Part shown: positions 2,265-13,832 of the stretch, piece after piece
Layout: every line of letters starts with the position of its first letter
Numbering within the stretch: position 1 is the first letter of the stretch
Virus record (IMG/VR): IMGVR_UViG_2740892031_000004
DNA: 15,282 nucleotides
Reading direction: 5' to 3' (one strand)
Source of the DNA: a virus
Taxonomy: Duplodnaviria > Heunggongvirae > Uroviricota > Caudoviricetes
The notes under the pieces: model-generated
Database searches by the model: none
The model's input: only the letters and a program-made list of their open reading frames with translations
What the model was told of the DNA's origin: nothing
Program-made: the position numbers and the translations under genes

Positions 2265-3155
2265 CTAAATACGCACTTTAAGATAAGTCAGCCCCGGATG
2301 AAGCCAGTAAGCCGGCACTTTTTTAAAGGGTGGAGTATTAAAATCACGAAGAAGAGCCTCCCGCACAATTGCATCCTTATCAGCACCACTGGCCAGCGCT
2401 TCAATCTCAGCGGCTACCTGAAGATATCCCATGCAACGGCCAACGCGCTTCATCAGCCCCTGCTTTTTATTGTTCTTCAGGTAATCAATGGCAAATTCAA
2501 TGAGCTCCTCACTGTGCTGGTGCGATGGAGGTGTTACTTTCCCATTTTCTGAGATGGTTATTTTCCCAGCATCACCGGATACAACAAAGGATGGCCGGTT
2601 ACACTCCCATTCCAGCTCACTGAAATTATCATTATGAATACTGAAACACTCTGCGAGATTTCTGCTCATCACTTTCCGACAATAATCGTCAAACGCAGCA
2701 AACTGCTTTTCATCACCAGAAGGCACCAATATCGACCATTTCTTATTCAGCTCAACGACGTAGCTCTCCAGTTTTTCAATACGTGATTCAACATCATCTT
2801 TTTCTGACCGCAGTGTTGACGGCGGCATCTTCAGAGAACAAGTAATTCTTCCCGGTAGCTTTCCTTTGTAGGTTATCAACACATCCTGCGCCTCTAAAAT
2901 TACGGGGCGCTTTTCCGGCAACGGTTCGTTCCATTCACATAACCCGGCAGCAACATCCATGAAAAACTGCTTCGCCTGCTTTTTCGCCTCAGCTTCGTAA
3001 AACTCCAGCGTGGCACCTTCAGTACGGTCAAGACTAATCGCCACATCTGGCAACAACAGCGACGCTTGCCCGTCACCTTCCGGCTTCACAGTAACAGTAA
3101 CCTTATCCCCGTAATTATTTATCCCCTTAACAACCAGTTCATATTTTTTATTCAT
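2265..3155 (-). CDS. hypothetical protein (296 aa) inserted between holin and endolysin; no recognised domain
   Basis: Long clean ORF. ATG at 3153-3155 lies 4 nt after the holin TAA stop (3160-3162), with a GGGGAGAG SD inside the holin 3' end. No signal peptide or transmembrane segment seen. I do not recognise the sequence. Confidence 0.7.
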   Translation of the reverse strand: MNKKYELVVKGINNYGDKVTVTVKPEGDGQASLLLPDVAISLDRTEGATLEFYEAEAKKQAKQFFMDVAAGLCEWNEPLPEKRPVILEAQDVLITYKGKLPGRITCSLKMPPSTLRSEKDDVESRIEKLESYVVELNKKWSILVPSGDEKQFAAFDDYCRKVMSRNLAECFSIHNDNFSELEWECNRPSFVVSGDAGKITISENGKVTPPSHQHSEELIEFAIDYLKNNKKQGLMKRVGRCMGYLQVAAEIEALASGADKDAIVREALLRDFNTPPFKKVPAYWLHPGLTYLKVRI

Positions 3156-3159
3156 CACT

Positions 3160-3375
3160 TTACTCTCCCCGCGCCGCCTTACGCCGGTCCTCTTTGATTT
3201 TGAAATACAGGTTAGTCAGGTACGTCAGCAGCCCAAACAGCAGACTCCCCAGCACGCCTATTGCCGCCCACTGAGACGGGGAAACCCTGTCCAGCAACTG
3301 CAGGAACCAGTAGCCCGTTCCCACCGCTGACGTGGTGTATGACACACCTGTTGTGATTTTTTCCATCTGGTACAT
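3160..3375 (-). CDS. S: class II holin, phage-21 S21 pinholin type, with dual-start motif
   Basis: [71 protein letters not shown] is near-identical in pattern to recalled S21 / EssD. Two in-frame ATGs (3373-3375 and 3364-3366) fit the holin/antiholin dual-start arrangement; GGGAGA SD upstream. Confidence 0.85.
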
Positions 3376-3451
3376 ACCCCGTCTCCCGTTATCCGGAAGC
3401 TCACAACAATATAAAGACCACCGGCACACACCGATGGTCCCTTGCGCAGGC

Positions 3452-3697
3452 TTACATCATCATGTCGCTGTCAGGTGTGGGTTCACCGCCATCTGAAGCA
3501 CTCCCGTCACCCGCGATACCTTCCGGCTCCGGAACCGCTGGTACGCCCAGCAGCTCATCCAGAATGGCATCCACTTCTGCATCAAGACGCGCCTCAAGGT
3601 TCTGGCGGAGTTTCTGTTTCAGTGCGCTCAGGACTTCTTCAGAGCGCAGGACTTCCTTCACTGCCTCAGCAGTGACCAGGGATGTGATTTCTGACAT
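3452..3697 (-). CDS. small acidic hypothetical protein (81 aa)
   Basis: ATG at 3695-3697; [51 protein letters not shown]... with an acidic, Pro/Gly-rich tail ending MMM. Resembles the small conserved ORFs found just upstream of S in Stx-type prophages (family not confirmed). Confidence 0.5.
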
Positions 3698-3734
3698 GGG
3701 ATTTTCTCGTTGAAAGGTGTTGTCAAGAAAGTGA

Positions 3735-3917
3735 CTACGGAATGAGCGGATCTTCGGGTTTGCTTCCGGCTGACTGACTGGCGCTGATTCTCTCAGCGGC
3801 CCTTTTATCAATCTGCCTGCGCCAGAAATCGCGCACTGCCCTGTACCCACCCGAAAGAAGATACATAACACAGACTGCCATACAGAAGTACAGCATTACC
3901 TGATGAATAAATGTCAT
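3735..3917 (-). CDS. small putative membrane protein (60 aa)
   Basis: ATG at 3915-3917 with weak SD; N-terminal hydrophobic helix (VMLYFCMAVCVMYLLSGG) followed by a basic tail. Confidence 0.35.
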   Translation of the reverse strand: MTFIHQVMLYFCMAVCVMYLLSGGYRAVRDFWRRQIDKRAAERISASQSAGSKPEDPLIP

Positions 3918-3935
3918 AATTTCTTACCGTTATGG

Positions 3936-3941
3936 TTGACA
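3936..3941 (+). promoter_or_regulatory. candidate -35 hexamer (TTGACA) for a short + strand transcript
   Basis: Exact TTGACA consensus at 3936-3941, but only weak -10 candidates 16-18 bp downstream (TTAGAA / TAGAAA). Confidence 0.2.
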
Positions 3942-4015
3942 ATGAGAACTGTTTTCATTTAGAAATGATTGATGTCGAAAGCATCTTTTCTTTACATTCT
4001 CCATTGGGATTACCT

Positions 4016-4052
4016 CCGCCAGCTTCCATTCCTGCCGCTGGCGGCTTTTTTT
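4016..4052 (+). terminator. intrinsic terminator on + strand, convergent with nanS-p 3' end
   Basis: 8-bp stem CCGCCAGC (4016-4023) / GCTGGCGG (4037-4044), then a T7 run (4046-4052). On the minus strand the run is A7 upstream of the hairpin, so this acts only for + strand transcription. Confidence 0.45.
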
Positions 4053-4053
4053 A

Positions 4054-6015
4054 TCATGCCGCGATGTCCGCGTTGTTCACTTCCACCTTCACACTGTCAA
4101 TCAGCAGCGTATATGTCGCCGCCTTTGATATGCCTGTCAGTTGCAGTTTGTCCGCCGCCCCTGATGCCGGAGATTTCACCAGTGTGAACGGCGTCCCCCG
4201 TTTCTCATCCAGTACCGGCGTCACCTGAATGCTGTTGTTTCCGGCAAACTCAAAAGCCAGTGTGTGCCATCCGTTATCAAAGACCCCGAACGTATCCAGC
4301 TTCGCATTCGGCTTCTTGTGGTGCATCGCGTTCAGGTTCGTCGCATCCGTCTGCAGGAAGAAGGACATCAGCATGTCGTTGCCTTCCTCTGCCAGCGTCA
4401 CTCCCTCCGGCAGGGACGACAACTGCCAGTAAATGCCCAGGGCAAACTGATTCGGCACCAGTGAACCCGGCAACTTAAACCGTACGCTCACACGTCCCCC
4501 CTTCTTCAGTAACTCCACTCCCTGTCCGGCTGCATCATGCTCCAGAAACCAGATGTGGTTTTCCGGTTTATTCAGTTGCAGGGCCTTACCTCCCGTAGCC
4601 CCCGCATCACTGACCACCGCTTCAGCAATGTTTTTGTTAACATTGTCTCCGCTCGCCGGTTTGTGATAATAGCGCCAGCCCTGTGATGCCAGGTCTTCGC
4701 CGGACGCCAGCAGACTCATCAGGGTTCGGTTACTGACCGGGGCTTCCGGCTCTCTCTCCGTACCTTCACCGGAAGGTCCGGTGGGCTTCACCGTATCAGG
4801 CTGTTTTCCGGTAATGAATTCAGCGTTTCTCCCGGCATGCACAAGAATCGCCGTTGCCAGACGGTCGGAAATAATCCCACGACGTGCCCATGATCCAAAA
4901 TGCGTTTTACGGTCGGCCGTCGTCCAGGTTTTGGCGTCCGTTCGACCACCGGCTCCGTAATACCCAATATCCGCAACATCCGGATCTTCTGACGGCTCGT
5001 TGGTACCCACATTTCGCCCGTTTTCATCCGTCATAAACGGCACAAAGAAGATTTTTTTTGCGGATTTCGTCTTGTATGCACCATACACCGCATCGTATTG
5101 CGAAGAATAAGTCTGCTTCCAGTAGTAGGTCGTGTCGCCACAAATCCAGGGAACCGATGACGGAGAGCCCCCGAGACACTGACCTCCGAATTCCGACAGG
5201 TCAGAACGATATTTTTCCACCATGGAATCAAACAGCCCCGGCTGAGTGGCGTATGCACCCTGTTTCAAATCAAACTCGCCCTGCATCCAGACCACTGCAA
5301 GCAGAATATTTTTAGGGTTGGCCTTCAGTGCGGCCTGAGTACGGGTAAGCAGGTCCTTGTACAGTGGCTTATCAACACCCCAGCGTGCCGAGGTCTCGCT
5401 TGCGCTGGTGGATTCGCTGAAGGTACCTTCATCGCCCGCCAAAAATGCAGAACCACCACGGCAGCACGGAACCAGAAGAATACCGGCATTCGCCGGAATA
5501 AACGGCAACAATTTCTTCGCGATATGTAATCCCTGCCCCACGCATCCATACTGAGCTGCGCTGGCTTTCGGGTGTGAAAACTTACTCAAATCCTGAACAT
5601 CATGCAGGCAGTGGTCCGCAGGAATAATGTCATTGTAGTTACAGGACGCACCACCCGGCGTGACAGTGCTGCGACGCGCCAGCTGTTTAATACGCGGGTC
5701 CGGACGGTCATATGTCTCCGGCAGCGGAAGCCCTTCACCATACGCCATACCGTTTGACCGCCCGGCTAGGGCAACAACAAAGTAATACTCCGGGTTGCTG
5801 GTGGTGCTGATAACTGCGCCTTCTCCATCCGACGGCTTCACCACCACAGGTGTGGTGACATCACCTTCCGCCGCAATGGCCTGCATCAGGGTATAAGGCG
5901 TGATGGCCACCGGACTGCCAAATGGCTGCCACCCCTCCTTCAGTTTTTGTGTCAGTCGTTTCGCAAGGTCTGACGGCGATGCCGCCCTGACAACATCATA
6001 GTGTTTAAATGCCAT
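4054..6015 (-). CDS. nanS-p: prophage NanS-p-type sialate O-acetylesterase (DUF1737 N-terminus plus SASA esterase region)
   Basis: 653 aa from ATG at 6013-6015 (ORF track gives 658 aa from 6030, which lacks an SD). N-terminus MAFKHYDVV...EGWQPFGSPV matches the DUF1737 pattern seen in the large yjhS/nanS-like proteins downstream of stx in EHEC prophages. Same position relative to Q and S as in Stx phages. Confidence 0.75.
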   Translation of the reverse strand: MAFKHYDVVRAASPSDLAKRLTQKLKEGWQPFGSPVAITPYTLMQAIAAEGDVTTPVVVKPSDGEGAVISTTSNPEYYFVVALAGRSNGMAYGEGLPLPETYDRPDPRIKQLARRSTVTPGGASCNYNDIIPADHCLHDVQDLSKFSHPKASAAQYGCVGQGLHIAKKLLPFIPANAGILLVPCCRGGSAFLAGDEGTFSESTSASETSARWGVDKPLYKDLLTRTQAALKANPKNILLAVVWMQGEFDLKQGAYATQPGLFDSMVEKYRSDLSEFGGQCLGGSPSSVPWICGDTTYYWKQTYSSQYDAVYGAYKTKSAKKIFFVPFMTDENGRNVGTNEPSEDPDVADIGYYGAGGRTDAKTWTTADRKTHFGSWARRGIISDRLATAILVHAGRNAEFITGKQPDTVKPTGPSGEGTEREPEAPVSNRTLMSLLASGEDLASQGWRYYHKPASGDNVNKNIAEAVVSDAGATGGKALQLNKPENHIWFLEHDAAGQGVELLKKGGRVSVRFKLPGSLVPNQFALGIYWQLSSLPEGVTLAEEGNDMLMSFFLQTDATNLNAMHHKKPNAKLDTFGVFDNGWHTLAFEFAGNNSIQVTPVLDEKRGTPFTLVKSPASGAADKLQLTGISKAATYTLLIDSVKVEVNNADIAA

Positions 6016-6208
6016 GGTTCTTTCCACCATCTGAAAAATAATTCTTTAAAATACCTGACATGTAATACAGAAAAAACACAAAACCATACCTTAAATAAAA
6101 ACCTCATCATCAAGCAGATATGCATGGATAAACTACAAGACGAGATATAAACCACCCTGCATTTAAATAAACAATAAACAACATCAGAAAAATAATTCTG
6201 CTCTATGG

Positions 6209-6275: not shown

Positions 6276-6611
6276 ATGAAGTGGATTGTGATTGATACAG
6301 TTATCCAGCCATCATGCGGAATATCTTTTTCAGTCATATGGAGTAAAATAAAATTAATAATCTGGTATCAATCGGATGCTTTCTTACCTCCTGAAAGTAT
6401 ATTTACACTGACTCACACAGGTATCATGCTCAATAACAAAGTGCTACCTGTAACCATTTACAACGTAGCACCATTCAATAAAACATTCTGGAATTTAATC
6501 AAAAACAGCCAGGAATGTCCTACAAATACAGATAACGTATTGAATGAATGCTTTAATAACCGTTGCACTCTGCAAATATGTCCTTATGGACTAAAACAAC
6601 AAAGTCCATAA
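6276..6611 (+). CDS. hypothetical protein (111 aa) in an AT-rich islet; only convincing + strand gene outside IS2
   Basis: ATG at 6276 with AAGGA SD 6 nt upstream. The AT-rich coding sequence contrasts with flanking phage genes. C-terminal cysteine cluster (C81, C92, C97, C102). Stop codon lies inside a perfect 12-bp hairpin. No homolog recognised. Confidence 0.45.
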
Positions 6612-6625: not shown

Positions 6626-6667
6626 TCTGACAAAATCAATATAAACAGCCCCTCCGGAGAGGGGCTG
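6626..6667 (-). terminator. candidate intrinsic terminator (minus strand)
   Basis: GC-rich 9-bp stem CAGCCCCTC / GAGGGGCTG (6646-6667) with 4-nt loop, followed on the minus strand by UUUAUAUUGAUUUUG. Confidence 0.4.
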
Positions 6668-6981
6668 GAGAGTGGCGCTATGTGCCATTGCATGATGCCG
6701 GGTGCCTCCCGGTGAGTTCAGTATCAGCACCTGAACCCGCACAGAAAGGATAAGGGTCGGTGACAAAACACCAGTTGCTGATTGCCCCTCCGCACAGGGG
6801 GATTCACCATGCCAGTTTCTTTTAACAAACTCCCCGCAAACCAGACAACAGTCAACCGCCTGAATTGTGAGGTATTTAAAAATTTCTCCAGATAACTGAT
6901 ACCCGGCTAACAGTCTGGCGTTTTCTTTTTCAGCAACGGGAAAGCAACAACCACCACACCCACCAGCCGCCCATTTACCAC

Positions 6982-7417: not shown

Positions 7418-7972
7418 TCAAAAAGCAATAACTTTTTCCTCTATACCAAAAGCCATAACCATTGGTTTGTACAAAATAAATTCTGCCACCTTTAGCCAAT
7501 GCTCAATGCGTCTTTCACAGGTTCTTAAACTCCATTCCGGGTGTGCATCATTCAGCAGTTCAGCCATTTTGCGCTTAGTCATCCCCCGCCCCACATAACG
7601 CTGACTCAGGACATTGAGCAGCCCGGGATAGCCTGCCAGGACTTCACCAATAACCCTGTCGATTATTAACGCCTCTGAATCGGTACAATGTGCCAGCCAG
7701 CTTTTTTGATTGCCGTTGATCATATCCCGCAAAAAAGCCTCAAGTTCAGGTTTGTCCAGACCAGCTTTTTTCATCCTCCGGAGCGCCTCGTTAATTGCCG
7801 TTTTTGTCAGCTTTTTAGAGGTCAGTAATTGGTTGAACATATTTCCCGTCTTACCGCCGCCAATATACGACCACCGCCCCCACATCCGTAATTTCCCCTG
7901 GATCCAGACTGCTTCCAGCGTTTTTAGACGTAAATGCTCGCCGCTTTTGCCTGTAATTTCCGGATATATCAT
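7418..7972 (-). CDS. Q: late-gene antiterminator Q (Phage_antitermQ-like)
   Basis: 184 aa from ATG at 7970-7972 (ORF track starts at GTG 7984, overlapping the rusA stop). Sits directly upstream of a terminator and the lysis genes, and downstream of rusA. Family call is from recalled Q sequences. Confidence 0.75.
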   Translation of the reverse strand: MIYPEITGKSGEHLRLKTLEAVWIQGKLRMWGRWSYIGGGKTGNMFNQLLTSKKLTKTAINEALRRMKKAGLDKPELEAFLRDMINGNQKSWLAHCTDSEALIIDRVIGEVLAGYPGLLNVLSQRYVGRGMTKRKMAELLNDAHPEWSLRTCERRIEHWLKVAEFILYKPMVMAFGIEEKVIAF

Positions 7973-7980
7973 ATTTACGC

Positions 7981-8340
7981 TCACTCACTCTCAATTTTGT
8001 AAATCTTCACACCCAGCCGTCCACCAGATACTGGCTGACCACGTACAATATTGATTTCATCAAACTGCTCATCGTCCATTAACACTCCCGCATGCGTCAG
8101 CGCATCCAGCGGTGCTTTCAGGATATTGTCCAGGTCGCGACGACGCTTATCCGGTGGCTCTGCAATCACCTTTATCGCCAGCCTTCCGGACAGGCTTAAT
8201 TTCAGCCGCTGCTGGCGAACAATAAGCGCCACAGCCCGGCGATAACGCTTTCCCTCCTCCGAGATAAAATATGTGCTGCCACGGCGTCGCCAGTAAGTGT
8301 TCACCGTCGGCGGGTAAGGTAAAACCAAATCTATGAGCAT
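7981..8340 (-). CDS. rusA: Holliday-junction resolvase RusA
   Basis: 119 aa; core motifs match recalled E. coli RusA (PDKRRRDLDNILKAPLDALTHAGVLMDDEQ vs [30 protein letters not shown]; GGRL near the C-terminus). Confidence 0.9.
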   Translation of the reverse strand: MLIDLVLPYPPTVNTYWRRRGSTYFISEEGKRYRRAVALIVRQQRLKLSLSGRLAIKVIAEPPDKRRRDLDNILKAPLDALTHAGVLMDDEQFDEINIVRGQPVSGGRLGVKIYKIESE

Positions 8341-9750: not shown

Positions 9751-9781
9751 CAGGAAAAAACAAAACCCGCCGAAGCGGGTT
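9751..9781 (-). terminator. intrinsic terminator ending the hok transcript
   Basis: Stem AACCCGC / GCGGGTT (9764-9781) with CGAA loop; on the minus strand followed by TTGTTTTTTCC. About 70 nt downstream of the hok stop. Confidence 0.6.
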
Positions 9782-9848: not shown

Positions 9849-10004
9849 TTACTCCTCAGGTTCGTAAGCTGTGAAGACAGTGACCTCCGTCTGGCCGGTT
9901 CGGATTCGTACCTCGCAGAGGTCTTTCCTCGTTACCAGTGCCGTCATTATGACGGTTAAACAGATGACGATCAGGGCGATTAACATCGCCTTTTGCTGCT
10001 TCAT
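9849..10004 (-). CDS. hokD: Hok/Gef-family type I toxin (51 aa)
   Basis: Minus-strand translation MKQQKAMLIALIVICLTVIMTALVTRKDLCEVRIRTGQTEVTVFTAYEPEE matches the Hok family and is nearly identical to my recollection of HokD/RelF. AAGGAG SD 9 nt upstream of the ATG at 10002-10004. Below the 60-aa cutoff, so absent from the ORF track. Confidence 0.85.
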   Translation of the reverse strand: MKQQKAMLIALIVICLTVIMTALVTRKDLCEVRIRTGQTEVTVFTAYEPEE

Positions 10005-10260
10005 AGCCTGCTTCTCCTTGACCTTTCGGTCCGTAAGAGGCTAATCTCTATGTGTCGCATAGATATGGCCTCAGATTAATGTTAAGCGTCTTGCAGGACC
10101 GCGTAATGTTAACTGGGGCTTTTCTCTATCTGCCTTTTGGTGTTCATGCCTGAGACAGATAGCCTCAAGCACCCGCAGTCATTCTACTTAACTAAGATTT
10201 CCCCGCAAACCGTTTTTGTCCGGCACAGTAAATATCCAACTAAACCAATGGCGTTCGCTG
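10005..10260 (-). promoter_or_regulatory. hok mRNA leader region (expected site of mok overlap and sok-type antisense control)
   Basis: Non-coding stretch upstream of hok. Hok loci normally carry a long structured leader with an antisense RNA; the individual elements were not resolved here. Confidence 0.3.
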
Positions 10261-10928: not shown

Positions 10929-11095
10929 TCATCGCCCCACTCATCACAATATGCTTCGACCGGAGTTTTTCCTGCTTCATAATCATCACGCCATGCTTCA
11001 GCAGCACTGCCACCACGTAACTCTGCATAGTCCATTAACAGTTCATGCCATGCTTCAAAACTGACGTTGTATTTAGTTGAACCAAAATCAGCCAT
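10925..11095 (-). CDS. small hypothetical protein (56 aa)
   Basis: Translated by hand (below the track cutoff): MADFGSTKYNVSFEAWHELLMDYAELRGGSAAEAWRDDYEAGKTPVEAYCDEWGDE. ATG at 11093-11095; stop overlaps the next start. Confidence 0.45.
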   Translation of the reverse strand: MADFGSTKYNVSFEAWHELLMDYAELRGGSAAEAWRDDYEAGKTPVEAYCDEWGDE

Positions 11096-11270
11096 TTTGC
11101 TCTTCCTCTTCGTCTTTTATTTCGTGATATGAGTAATTGCAGTAGTTAAAGAAAATATCTTTTGCTTCGTCATGTATTTCATCAGGCGTCGCATCATCAT
11201 CCACTTCGAATTCATCCTCGAAATCTCCACCGGCTATTCCCGTTTCAATAATTATTTTAAACTTTCGCAT
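11088..11270 (-). CDS. small acidic hypothetical protein (60 aa)
   Basis: ATG at 11268-11270, preceded by GAAAGGG within a GNRA-loop hairpin; Asp/Glu-rich sequence. Confidence 0.5.
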   Translation of the reverse strand: MRKFKIIIETGIAGGDFEDEFEVDDDATPDEIHDEAKDIFFNYCNYSYHEIKDEEEEQNG

Positions 11271-11363
11271 TTAACTACCGCCCTTTCGGGCGGCCTCCTG
11301 ATGTTCTGAGGGTGCAGAAATCCCTCCGGTTAAGGATTAAATTTTTAACAGAGCTAAATTTAA

Positions 11364-11658
11364 TTATTCAGTTCTGGATTTTGTCGCCCTGCGTATCCGC
11401 GCTTTCGCGTTACGCTCAATCTGAATTAGCTTTTCTATATTTTTTCGCCTTTCCCGCTCCTCCTGACGCAAGAGCCTTACATCATCTGCCAGTCTGGTTT
11501 CTCTTTTCGCCACAGAGAGCATCCAGTCAAATGGTTCCACAACTGCACCGCAGATTTTACAGCGGACCTGACGCTCTTTTTCGTCAACCCGGACAGAGGC
11601 GTGATGACAATATGGTCTTTCCGATGGCTCATAAAGAAAATTAACCTGATTACGAGGG
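11364..11658 (-). pseudogene. C-terminal part of a small gene split by IS2
   Basis: The frame continues across the IS2 junction. Joining 13056..12990 to 11658..11364 and removing one GAGGG copy gives an intact 117-aa ORF (MEIKPEDELSNIVLFPVKEDDPRNQVNFLYEPSERPYCHHASVRVDEKERQVRCKICGAVVEPFDW...) with a CxHH...CxxC motif. Confidence 0.7.
11654..11658. repeat. IS2 target-site duplication, left copy (GAGGG)
   Basis: GAGGG immediately left of the IS2 end; identical GAGGG at 12990-12994. Confidence 0.8.
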
Positions 11659-11749
11659 TAGACTGGCCCCCTGAATCTCCAGACAACCAATATCACTTAT
11701 TTAAGTGATAGTCTTAATACTAGTTTTTAGACTAGTCATTGGAGAACAG

Positions 11750-12115
11750 ATGATTGATGTCTTAGGGCCGGAGAAACGCAGACGGCGTACCACACAGGAA
11801 AAGATCGCAATTGTTCAGCAGAGCTTTGAACCGGGGATGACGGTCTCCCTCGTTGCCCGGCAACATGGTGTAGCAGCCAGCCAGTTATTTCTCTGGCGTA
11901 AGCAATACCAGGAAGGAAGTCTTACTGCTGTCGCCGCCGGAGAACAGGTTGTTCCTGCCTCTGAACTTGCTGCCGCCATGAAGCAGATTAAAGAACTCCA
12001 GCGCCTGCTCGGCAAGAAAACGATGGAAAATGAACTCCTCAAAGAAGCCGTTGAATATGGACGGGCAAAAAAGTGGATAGCGCACGCGCCCTTATTGCCC
12101 GGGGATGGGGAGTAA
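11750..12115 (+). CDS. insC: IS2 OrfA (InsC)
   Basis: 121 aa, [40 protein letters not shown]... matches recalled InsC. ORF track starts at an upstream GTG (11705). Confidence 0.9.
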
Positions 12116-12978
12116 GCTTAGTCAGCCGTTGTCTCCGGGTGTCGCGTGCGCAGTTGCACGTCATTCTCAGACGAACCGATGACTGGATGGATGGCCGCCG
12201 CAGTCGTCACACTGATGATACGGATGTGCTTCTCCGTATACACCATGTTATCGGAGAGCTGCCCACGTATGGTTATCGTCGGGTATGGGCGCTGCTTCGC
12301 AGACAGGCAGAACTTGATGGTATGCCTGCGATCAATGCCAAACGTGTTTACCGGATCATGCGCCAGAATGCGCTGTTGCTTGAGCGAAAACCTGCTGTAC
12401 CGCCATCGAAACGGGCACATACAGGCAGAGTGGCCGTGAAAGAAAGCAATCAGCGATGGTGCTCTGACGGGTTCGAGTTCTGCTGTGATAACGGAGAGAG
12501 ACTGCGTGTCACGTTCGCGCTGGACTGCTGTGATCGTGAGGCACTGCACTGGGCGGTCACTACCGGCGGCTTCAACAGTGAAACAGTACAGGACGTCATG
12601 CTGGGAGCGGTGGAACGCCGCTTCGGCAACGATCTTCCGTCGTCTCCAGTGGAGTGGCTGACGGATAATGGTTCATGCTACCGGGCTAATGAAACACGCC
12701 AGTTCGCCCGGATGTTGGGACTTGAACCGAAGAACACGGCGGTGCGGAGTCCGGAGAGTAACGGAATAGCAGAGAGCTTCGTGAAAACGATAAAGCGTGA
12801 CTACATCAGTATCATGCCCAAACCAGACGGGTTAACGGCAGCAAAGAACCTTGCAGAGGCGTTCGAGCATTATAACGAATGGCATCCGCATAGTGCGCTG
12901 GGTTATCGCTCGCCACGGGAATATCTGCGGCAGCGGGCTTGTAATGGGTTAAGTGATAACAGATGTCTGGAAATATAG
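12073..12978 (+). CDS. insD: IS2 OrfB transposase (InsD), DDE-type
   Basis: 301 aa, [34 protein letters not shown]... matches recalled InsD; overlaps insC as expected for the frameshift-fused IS3-family transposase. Confidence 0.9.
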
Positions 12979-12989
12979 GGGCAAATCCA

Positions 12990-12994
12990 GAGGG
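12990..12994. repeat. IS2 target-site duplication, right copy (GAGGG)
   Basis: Identical to 11654-11658. Confidence 0.8.
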
Positions 12995-13056
12995 TCATCC
13001 TCTTTTACCGGAAATAAAACGATATTGCTTAACTCATCCTCTGGTTTTATTTCCAT
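12990..13056 (-). pseudogene. N-terminal part (22 codons) of the IS2-split gene
   Basis: ATG at 13054-13056 with GGAGAGGAG upstream; MEIKPEDELSNIVLFPVKEDDP then the IS2 end. Overlaps the last 23 nt of the Ea22-like gene. Confidence 0.6.
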
Positions 13057-13657
13057 GCTCCTCTCCTTTGATGCGAATGCCAGCGACGCGTAATGCGTGT
13101 TCCAGGTCAATCAGGTAAAGCCAACTGCCATTTTCTTTAGGTATCATGACATGTCGCTCATCTGCATTTATCGGGTGTCCATATCGAAGGTCGTAGCGAG
13201 TCGGTAATTGAACTTCCCGCGCTTCCAGTTCAGCAATACGCTTGCACCCATCAGAGATAACTCCCTCGTAATACTCGCGCTGCTCGTTGAGTTTTGATTT
13301 TGCTGCTTCAAGCTCAACGAGCAGCTTCCCAACCGTAAGCGCAATATCCTCGTTCTCCTGGTCGCGGCGTTTGATGTATTGCTGGTTTCTTTCCTGTTCA
13401 TCCAGCAGTGCCAGCACGGTAGCCGGGTTAGCCTCTGCTATGAACTCAGCGTTTGCATAAGCCTGAGCATCTGTTTCAATCAGGCAGTTAACATGACGTT
13501 CCGCAATCACGCCACCGGGTTCTCCTTTCCATTTTTGACAAACAAAAACTCCTGTTAAATTGCCGTGTTGGTTAACAGATGTATGCCCTACGATGTAGCT
13601 TCCTTTAGTTGCTTTCTCTGCCTTTTCACGCAGTACCTGATAGTTAATCTCGCTCAT
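13034..13657 (-). CDS. Ea22-like family phage protein (207 aa)
   Basis: Start taken as the ATG at 13655-13657 (MSEINYQ...); ORF track extends to a TTG at 13681. Contains the NAEFIAEANPATVLALLDEQE segment I associate with Ea22-like proteins. Confidence 0.7.
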   Translation of the reverse strand: MSEINYQVLREKAEKATKGSYIVGHTSVNQHGNLTGVFVCQKWKGEPGGVIAERHVNCLIETDAQAYANAEFIAEANPATVLALLDEQERNQQYIKRRDQENEDIALTVGKLLVELEAAKSKLNEQREYYEGVISDGCKRIAELEAREVQLPTRYDLRYGHPINADERHVMIPKENGSWLYLIDLEHALRVAGIRIKGEEHGNKTRG

Positions 13658-13832
13658 TTTTCTCTTCATTCCGGTATACAAGAATTACAACGTCACCTCT
13701 GCTAATTACGCGAGCTGGATCCCCTGGTTCCATGCTGTCAATCCCGAAGGCTTCGAAAAATGCATCCATTGCCTTCTGGCGTTGCTCCTGCTTACGGCGT
13801 TTATTCCATTTTTGAACAACAGTGACAGCCAT
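13644..13832 (-). CDS. small basic hypothetical protein (62 aa)
   Basis: ATG at 13830-13832; charged, helical-looking sequence (KWNKRRKQEQRQKAMDAFFEAFGID). Overlaps the Ea22-like start by 14 nt. Competes with an overlapping 72-aa ORF in another frame. Confidence 0.4.
   Translation of the reverse strand: MAVTVVQKWNKRRKQEQRQKAMDAFFEAFGIDSMEPGDPARVISRGDVVILVYRNEEKNERD

Follow-up and report, generated by a model that had tools for sequence, protein, structure and literature searches.

At positions 11,364 to 13,056 of the window (the whole stretch of 15,282 nucleotides analysed here, IMG/VR record IMGVR_UViG_2740892031_000004 of a caudoviricete virus), a copy of IS2 lies between two fragments of a small gene, which raises the question of whether the element arrived by simple transposition, what the gene was, and whether the genes on either side are affected. 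We regard it as very nearly certain that a simple IS2 transposition took place at codon 22/23 of a 118-aa gene in a lambdoid prophage integrated next to potC. The locus combines a known element with known behavior, and public records already annotate both the pseudogene and the IS2. It is a textbook young IS2 insertion: the site before insertion, the duplicated target and the exact original gene can all be recovered (Table 1).

The gene order was established from the RefSeq annotation of strains B2.3 and THO-008, complemented by Pfam. The prophage adjoins potC, and its minus strand starts with a cro-like regulator, YdaT, O-like and P-like replication genes, DUF1627, DUF4406 and DUF4752, continues with ead/Ea22, the zinc-ribbon gene that is split here, DUF7167, two small ORFs and hokD/sok, and ends with DUF968, RusA, a DUF1133 protein, and lysis and late genes. 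IS2 is located within the early-right (pR) operon, between replication and the nin-side and Q-like genes, with its transposase genes antisense. Indeed, a previous sequence-only reading had set the element between the early genes upstream and the small genes of the hok/nin side downstream, and the RefSeq annotation of relatives and Pfam agree with this placement. Read along the minus strand, the DUF1133 gene starts 3.7 kb downstream of the element. Its product passes the Pfam Phage_antitermQ model (32.6 bits, cut-off 26) and weakly matches the Q protein of phage 21 (6p18, E = 0.0015), and in a relative the same slot is occupied by an annotated 'antitermination protein'. As it scores above the threshold and lies shortly before the lysis and late region, the gene qualifies as a putative Q-type late antiterminator.

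Table 1. Coordinates of the features at and around the IS2 insertion, numbered along the window.
Feature	Position	Strand	Remarks
Left 5-bp target-site duplication GAGGG	11654..11658	.	Single copy in the THO-008 empty site
Right 5-bp target-site duplication GAGGG	12990..12994	.	
IS2, complete, apparently functional (IS3 family)	11659..12989	+	1331 bp; IRL = 11659 end, IRR = 12989 end
IS2 orfA (InsC), 121 aa	11750..12115	+	Identical to K-12 InsC1
IS2 orfB (InsD), 301 aa, catalytic domain	12073..12978	+	Identical to K-12 InsD1
A AAA AAG programmed -1 frameshift site (A6G), orfA-orfB joint	12067..12073	+	
5' fragment of split gene, codons 1-22 plus 1 nt	12990..13056	-	ATG at 13056
3' fragment of split gene, duplicated CCCTC to codon 118 and stop; zinc ribbon and C-terminal helix	11364..11658	-	
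Truncated product, 35 aa: 22 native residues and 13 from IRR	12949..13056	-	Stop 12949-12951, in IS2
Open frame, 110 aa, GTG in IRL: 14 IS2-encoded residues and native 23-118	11364..11696	-	
ead/Ea22-like gene, upstream	13034..13681	-	Ead_Ea22, E = 1.7e-39; end overlaps split-gene start by 23 nt
DUF7167, first gene downstream of split gene	11088..11270	-	Pfam, E = 7.9e-15
hokD toxin	9849..10004	-	RefSeq annotation
sok RNA region	10002-10174		Rfam sok, 106 bits
DUF1133 / Q-like late antiterminator	7418..7984	-	Pfam DUF1133, E = 5.6e-106

The element, its target duplication and the empty site

The window copy of IS2 deviates from IS2A of E. coli K-12 MG1655 at three bases (IS positions 42, 43 and 606; 99.8% identity). 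It begins with TAGACTGGCCCCCTGAATC and finishes with GGGGCAAATCCA, and its termini, TAGACTGG... and ...CAAATCCA, are the same as those of K-12 IS2A. The inverted repeats of IS2 are imperfect and about 41-42 bp long, with IRR ending in ...CA and the TA terminus of IRL being atypical; here, the terminal inverted repeats produced an imperfect alignment of ~42 bp, with mismatches and one gap per side. A simulated -1 shift at the A6G site generated an OrfAB of 409 aa, equal in length to the 409-residue transposase called at the same IS2 in GCA_000459595.1. Analogously, RefSeq describes the element of strain B2.3 as 'IS3-like element IS2 family transposase', a frameshift-joined CDS of 1229 nt marked 'programmed frameshift'. 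Precomputed Pfam assignments for the identical OrfB product at other loci comprise rve (PF00665), rve_3 and HTH_21, and OrfB supplies the DDE (rve) catalytic domain expected of an IS2. Considering that OrfA and OrfB are identical to the K-12 proteins, that the A6G site is in place and that the element is nearly identical to IS2A, the window IS2 appears to be a complete, canonical copy that looks functional, with the intact coding sequences and ends pointing to transposition competence.

A target duplication of 5 bp is known for IS2, and the copy-out/paste-in route of the IS3 family, the normal pathway of this element, would account for its presence here. The two flanking repeats read GAGGG, and the chance of a given 5-mer being repeated is 1 in 1024. 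In THO-008, two BLAST pieces of the window overlap by the lone GAGGG (L001 12655-12660). In each of the 25 complete E. coli genomes listed, an empty-site reconstruction of 800 bp matched with 100% identity; 579 records were at least 99% identical to it, and 650 genomes covered at least 80% of its length. Extended to 3458 bp, the reconstruction was recovered as one contiguous piece, with 99.7% identity, in the listed relatives, with 84 genomes covering at least 80% and 83 records being at least 99% identical. Because of the 1-in-1024 odds of the repeat, the canonical IS2 and an exact empty site in hundreds of genomes, the combination of element and repeats is not a product of chance, and beyond the insertion of IS2 nothing is rearranged at the locus.

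These results agree with the sequence-only reading, which had placed the IS2 boundaries, the GAGGG repeats and the split ORF correctly. It had also proposed a simple insertion with intact target duplication, to be checked against an uninterrupted allele in related genomes and given up if the flanks were contiguous in no relative; the allele was found with both reconstructions, and its flanks are contiguous. Copies of insertion sequences often mediate rearrangements, and for that reason alone we considered whether flanks not previously adjacent had been brought together here, either by recombination of two IS2 copies or by deletion or inversion mediated by the element. A search for support for such an event at the IS2 returned none. 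The identity of the 5-bp repeats, the contiguity of the flanks around a single GAGGG in hundreds of genomes and the agreement of the rebuilt ORF with an annotated intact protein all speak against it, and we hold this explanation, refuted by the empty-site alignments, to be exceedingly improbable.

The simple insertion was next placed among public genomes. With a 201-bp probe, an unbroken left junction of the occupied allele was recovered from only one of 5426 complete genomes. The carrier, strain B2.3 from human stool, is collinear with the whole window without gaps and displays 30 mismatches in 15.3 kb. Nine of these 30 are clustered in IS2, at positions 403-575, a pattern suggestive of either gene conversion by a further IS2 copy or an artefact of polishing. 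As B2.3 and the window differ at 30 bases, the occupied allele either has some age or underwent gene conversion. Exact-sequence look-up of the 35-aa stub left by the insertion uncovered at least 24 further public contigs. The carriers include the NCBI assemblies GCA_000459595.1 (L010), GCA_900448455.1, GCA_050021895.1 and GCA_029997175.1, as well as a Logan SRA assembly and several human gut metagenomes. Carrier contigs are 98.8-100% identical to the window, the closest stretch found being that of GCA_050021895.1 (100% over 4284 nt).

The same records bear on the idea that an assembler put the IS2 repeat in the wrong place. Such elements are common sites of misassembly, and the nine clustered differences between the B2.3 and window copies might stem from reads of other IS2 copies used in polishing. 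Both junctions, however, recur in independent assemblies, among them a 5.1-Mb contig (GCA_900448455.1), three other NCBI assemblies, the Logan SRA assembly and several gut metagenomes, and misassembly would not be expected to produce a perfect target duplication. On these grounds an assembly artefact was rejected, and we give it hardly any probability.

With a perfect duplication, a canonical element and a rare allele, the insertion is young; since at least 24 other contigs, some from isolates and some from gut metagenomes, carry it too, it is nonetheless an inherited allele of a circulating E. coli lineage and not a private event. Its earlier description as recent is thus appropriate in evolutionary terms, but not in the sense of a private event, as the insertion is common to several non-identical isolates and metagenomes. 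Being rare and at the same time recurrent in isolates and gut metagenomes, the occupied allele represents a possible lineage marker.

The split gene and its product

Removal of IS2 and one GAGGG yields an unbroken minus-strand ORF of 357 nt, from the ATG at 13056 to the stop at 11364-11366, and a Shine-Dalgarno-like GGAGAGGAG can be read upstream of the ATG. The reconstruction is as clean as first reported, with a length of 118 aa in place of the 117 aa then given. THO-008 harbors an intact 357-nt CDS (WP_000403785.1) at the same place, between the ead/Ea22-like and DUF7167 genes. Two induced, isolated phages, vB_EcoS-813R8 and vB_EcoS-640R1, encode the intact protein with 100% identity; for phage ArgO145 and several phages of the Stx2a-converting kind the identity is 99.2%. 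The family as a whole was matched at 7484 places in 3365 genomes.

In the window the gene is knocked out: a 35-aa stub is left, and the zinc ribbon and helix are severed from the start codon. The 3' fragment is labelled by PGAP in B2.3 as 'incomplete; missing N-terminus'. Gene callers predicted the 110-aa frame fused to IRL on five contigs, and a sequence scan upstream of this frame detected no clear ribosome-binding site or promoter. For annotation purposes, the two gene fragments should be corrected to one 118-aa gene.

The rebuilt protein matched phrog_1621, a family listed with function unknown, with E = 1.8e-56, its residues 1-117 aligning to positions 1-120 of the 134 in the profile. The CxHH...CxxC motif noticed earlier is indeed present, as C38-H39-H40 ... 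C54-K-I-C57, but its invariant form is CxH...CxxC: C38, H40, C54 and C57 are invariant in 40 aligned homologues from Escherichia, Salmonella, Klebsiella, Serratia, Erwinia and Yersinia, down to 45% identity. Across the same 40 homologues the C-terminal LRxEExxRRxNIEKLIQIERNAKARIRR is nearly invariant. In an AlphaFold2 model of the 118-aa protein (mean pLDDT 73.7), the N-terminus is poorly ordered, a small beta-hairpin is predicted between the ligand pairs, and residues 63-117 form a single long helix, with pLDDT of about 94-97 over residues 81-110. The four conserved putative metal ligands with their knuckle spacing would, at the level of sequence and model, be congruent with a generic zinc-binding site.

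The closest known resemblance is to the zinc ribbon of TFIIB. The Pfam TFIIB zinc ribbon (PF08271) covered residues 36-73 with E = 1.6e-4 and 21.6 bits, below the cut-off of 29, and the best structural match in Foldseek was the TFIIB N-terminal domain 1pft (probability 0.97, 27 columns). Foldseek against PDB and BFVD returned zinc-ribbon fragments only, with no match of E <0.1. The first ligand pair of TFIIB-type zinc ribbons is C-x-x-C/H, whereas that of the 118-aa protein is C-x-H. Membership of the TFIIB family was rejected given the sub-threshold score, the likeness being a generic fold resemblance only. Searches with the protein against NCBIfam and, by profile, against PDB sequences gave no match, PADLOC gave a chance-level match only (0.033), and no function name was obtained from Pfam, NCBIfam, PADLOC, the PDB profile or Foldseek. 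The 118-aa product is probably a small zinc-ribbon protein, as predicted, with a basic helix that likely forms a coiled coil. The split gene encodes a widespread, conserved and uncharacterised zinc-ribbon protein of lambdoid and Stx phages, on whose function the window is silent.

Effects on neighboring genes and recurrent insertions

A further proposal had been that IS2 might act as an outward promoter toward 11658 and below. In a promoter scan, no promoter-like site with at least 9/12 matches was detected at either IS2 end, and by eye the best match reading outward from IRL toward 11658 reached 8/12. IS2 is able to make fusion promoters, as for ampC (Jaurin and Normark 1983, summarised in PMC9330008), which argues for a mobile promoter that switches on the downstream genes of the hok/nin side. 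However, IS3-family elements, IS2 among them, have their documented outward -35 in IRR (PMC9330008), and here IRR faces the plus strand direction, toward the ead/replication side and antisense to those genes, thus away from 11658 and below. Moreover, the flank beside IRR, GAGGGT..., makes a poor -10. A reporter study that covered the right end of IS2 detected promoter activity from it on neither strand and gave it the lowest probability of acquiring a promoter (Pnew = 0.02; PMC12095673). With no site of at least 9/12 matches reading out of IRL either, the proposal is left without sequence support; we judge a mobile promoter of this kind to be very unlikely, and IS2 does not seem to serve as a promoter toward the hok/nin side.

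Polarity is a separate matter. In the lysogen, pR should be repressed, and the insertion is then probably near-neutral, assuming that the split gene lacks a promoter of its own; near-neutrality would explain the persistence of the allele. Upon induction, pR transcription would enter IS2 at IRR and cross 1.3 kb of antisense, untranslated and C-rich RNA. Barring processive antitermination, Rho would be expected to terminate transcripts there, so that DUF7167, the hokD region, DUF968, rusA and the Q-like antiterminator would be expressed less. The antisense IS2 RNA contains 389 C versus 318 G, and 20 of its 97 stretches of 78 nt reach a C/G of at least 1.5, versus 0 of 168 in the upstream phage genes. 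In the galEP3 reporter, IS2 serves as a set of Rho-dependent terminators (PMC3737525). As the antisense RNA is C-rich and untranslated, and as IS2 is the source of the Rho-dependent terminators of galEP3, we infer that Rho-dependent polarity during induction is plausible.

A terminator scan found no intrinsic terminator inside IS2. On the minus strand, a strong intrinsic-terminator-like hairpin follows hokD at 9764-9781, between IS2 and the Q-like gene. This hairpin implies that the phage antiterminates, which would also suppress IS2 polarity, or that Q has another promoter, and in either case the effect of IS2 on the late genes could be small. If polarity does occur, the window provides one more insertion sequence crippling prophage induction, which is a known theme.

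Other insertions were encountered nearby. In VL40, an independent IS2 resides in the same gene but 34 bp nearer the start codon; its target-site duplication is CTTAA, and it shows six differences from the window copy. In 32A22CPO009, and probably in MSB1_6C, it is the neighboring ead/Ea22 gene that contains an IS2, a divergent isoform with 58 differences and CTCAG as duplication. Protein P0028 reads into the IRR of an IS2 from codon 100, while in proteins P0035 and P0045 the frame continues into the end of an IS1, at a different codon in each. All four IS2 events in the segment have the same orientation. An orientation bias of the IS3 family as the cause is unsupported, as no significant bias was reported for this family in Proteobacteria (PMC3971601).

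One may ask whether the window insertion was selected, the prophage being tamed through blocked pR read-through to the Q-like gene or through loss of the zinc-ribbon protein, with the recurrent hits being convergent. The independent IS2 and IS1 insertions within the same ~0.5-kb segment, the orientation shared by four of four IS2 events and the persistence of the occupied allele across many samples would all fit such a scenario. Yet the gene family is abundant (7484 places) and IS2 is near-ubiquitous (24094 places), so that a few hits are expected by chance; the pattern is further weakened by the prophage being a neutral target; the common orientation has p of about 0.125 in a small sample, in a family for which no such bias was seen in Proteobacteria (PMC3971601); annotation shows the IS2-bearing prophage with its late genes intact, as expected for a young neutral event; and the allele occurs in only 1 of 5426 complete genomes. 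We therefore find selection improbable. The broader notion that the ~0.5-kb ead/zinc-ribbon segment, with at least four IS2 and two IS1 independent events, is a preferred or selected landing site where insertions may tame the prophage strikes us as equally doubtful; were it true, taming would proceed via blocked early-right read-through to the Q-like gene, or via loss of a zinc-ribbon protein whose presence burdens the host. The repeated hits are compatible with chance together with tolerance of insertions.

Comparison with known systems

The window IS2 resembles IS2A of K-12 MG1655 in length, in OrfA and OrfB, in the A6G site and in its imperfect inverted repeats. IS2A splits yaiX, and the window copy likewise splits a gene, but at another target. 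The two also differ by a change of AA to TT at IS positions 42-43, in the center of the palindrome ATCACTTA-NN-TAAGTGAT just inside IRL.

With regard to polarity, the classical polar IS2 insertions (galEP3/gal3) are the nearest parallel, as there, too, IS2 lies within an operon whose downstream genes rely on read-through. For the window, polarity is predicted from sequence, and a literature search for the orientation of the galEP3 reporter's IS2, which may differ from that of the window copy, gave no answer. IS2 insertions in lambda such as r32 are classical polar insertions as well, and the antitermination function lambda N suppresses IS2 polarity.

Finally, the prophage proteins of phrog_1621 (WP_000403785.1 and those of ArgO145 and the Stx2a phages) have the same length of 118 aa and are identical or nearly identical to the rebuilt protein. 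Their genes have the same neighbors, ead/Ea22 on one side and DUF7167 on the other, within the early region of the nin side; in the window the gene is split.

Further IS2 insertions and internal differences of the element

Apart from the IS2 copy that interrupts the split gene (encoding the 118-aa zinc-ribbon protein) in the window, relatives carry IS2 in this neighborhood at other positions (table). In strain VL40, the target within the homologue of the split gene corresponds to window 13028-13032, 34 bp nearer the start codon than the window IS2, and the two copies differ at 6 bases; the VL40 element is an insertion independent of that in the window. There, PGAP calls a chimeric 357-nt CDS with its start inside IRL. 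In strain 32A22CPO009 (NZ_CM151361.1), it is the neighboring ead/Ea22-like gene that is hit, at window-equivalent 13445-13449, by a divergent isoform with 58 differences and a length of 1331 bp. A span of 4800 bp in NZ_LR890714.1 (MSB1_6C) equals that of NZ_CM151361.1, and the former probably holds the same ead/Ea22-like insertion.

Directly inside IRL, at window 11692-11709 (IS2 positions 34-51), lies the palindrome ATCACTTA-NN-TAAGTGAT. Its two central bases read TT in the window copy and also in B2.3, the only complete genome with the same occupied allele, and AA in the reference copy K-12 IS2A, VL40 and 32A22CPO009. This change is equivalent to an inversion of the 18-bp palindrome. B2.3 and the window mismatch at 30 positions, 9 of which are clustered around the frameshift region, at window 12061-12233 (IS2 positions 403-575). 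The window IS2 agrees with K-12 at all nine, which, for B2.3, points to gene conversion by a second copy of IS2 or to an artefact of polishing.

Features in the window and in related loci
Feature	Sequence	Position	Strand	Remarks
IS2 in split-gene homologue	VL40, L003 (NZ_CM177011.1)	3135-4465	as window IS2	TSD CTTAA
IS2 isoform in ead/Ea22-like gene	32A22CPO009, L021 (NZ_CM151361.1)	3055-4385	as window IS2	TSD CTCAG
SASA-family carbohydrate esterase, 658 aa	window	4054-6030	-	DUF1737 + SASA + DUF6645; late-region cargo
IraM anti-adaptor gene	window	6276-6611	+	late-region cargo; strand opposite to esterase
sRNA STnc100	window	6637-6841	-	Rfam, 133.5 bits, above gathering score; near IraM gene
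Strong intrinsic-terminator-like hairpin AACCCGCTTCGGCGGGTT, then T-run	window	9764-9781	-	directly downstream of hokD
sok antitoxin region of hokD	window	10002-10174	-	Rfam, 106.4 bits, above gathering score
G+C-rich hairpin GCCGCCCGAAAGGGCGG	window	11281-11297	-	in 93-bp spacer, split-gene stop to DUF7167 start

The ead/Ea22 junction and altered forms of the zinc-ribbon protein

The first 23 nt of the split gene (window 13034-13056) are shared with the ead/Ea22-like ORF, an arrangement suggesting that the two are translationally coupled. In a few genomes (P0002, P0043), an N-terminal Ead/Ea22 domain is fused in frame to the zinc-ribbon protein, the E. marmotae fusion being 202 aa. RefSeq annotates the window ead/Ea22 copy as a pseudogene with its C-terminus missing and the adjacent DUF4752 gene as frameshifted; both annotations are also present in empty-site relatives.

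The 118-aa protein itself occurs in numerous chimeric or truncated versions (e.g. P0028, P0035, P0045, P0050, P0058 and P0059). In P0028, the reading frame enters IRR of IS2 after codon 100, while those of P0035 and P0045 run into an IS1 end, at a different codon in each, as confirmed by translation. P0050, the form in Shigella sonnei, is found in 36 contigs, and its tail looks like a candidate IS911-type end. P0077 represents a frameshift version.

Downstream hairpins and late-region cargo

The terminator-like hairpin following hokD lies where transcripts initiated at the early-right promoter must pass to reach DUF968, rusA and the Q-like gene, which implies that these three depend on antitermination or on a promoter of their own. 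The hairpin preceding DUF7167, ending 8 nt upstream of the ATG, lacks a T-run and is thus not a typical terminator. In the late region, the SASA-family esterase is presumably similar to the NanS-p esterases that Stx phages carry.
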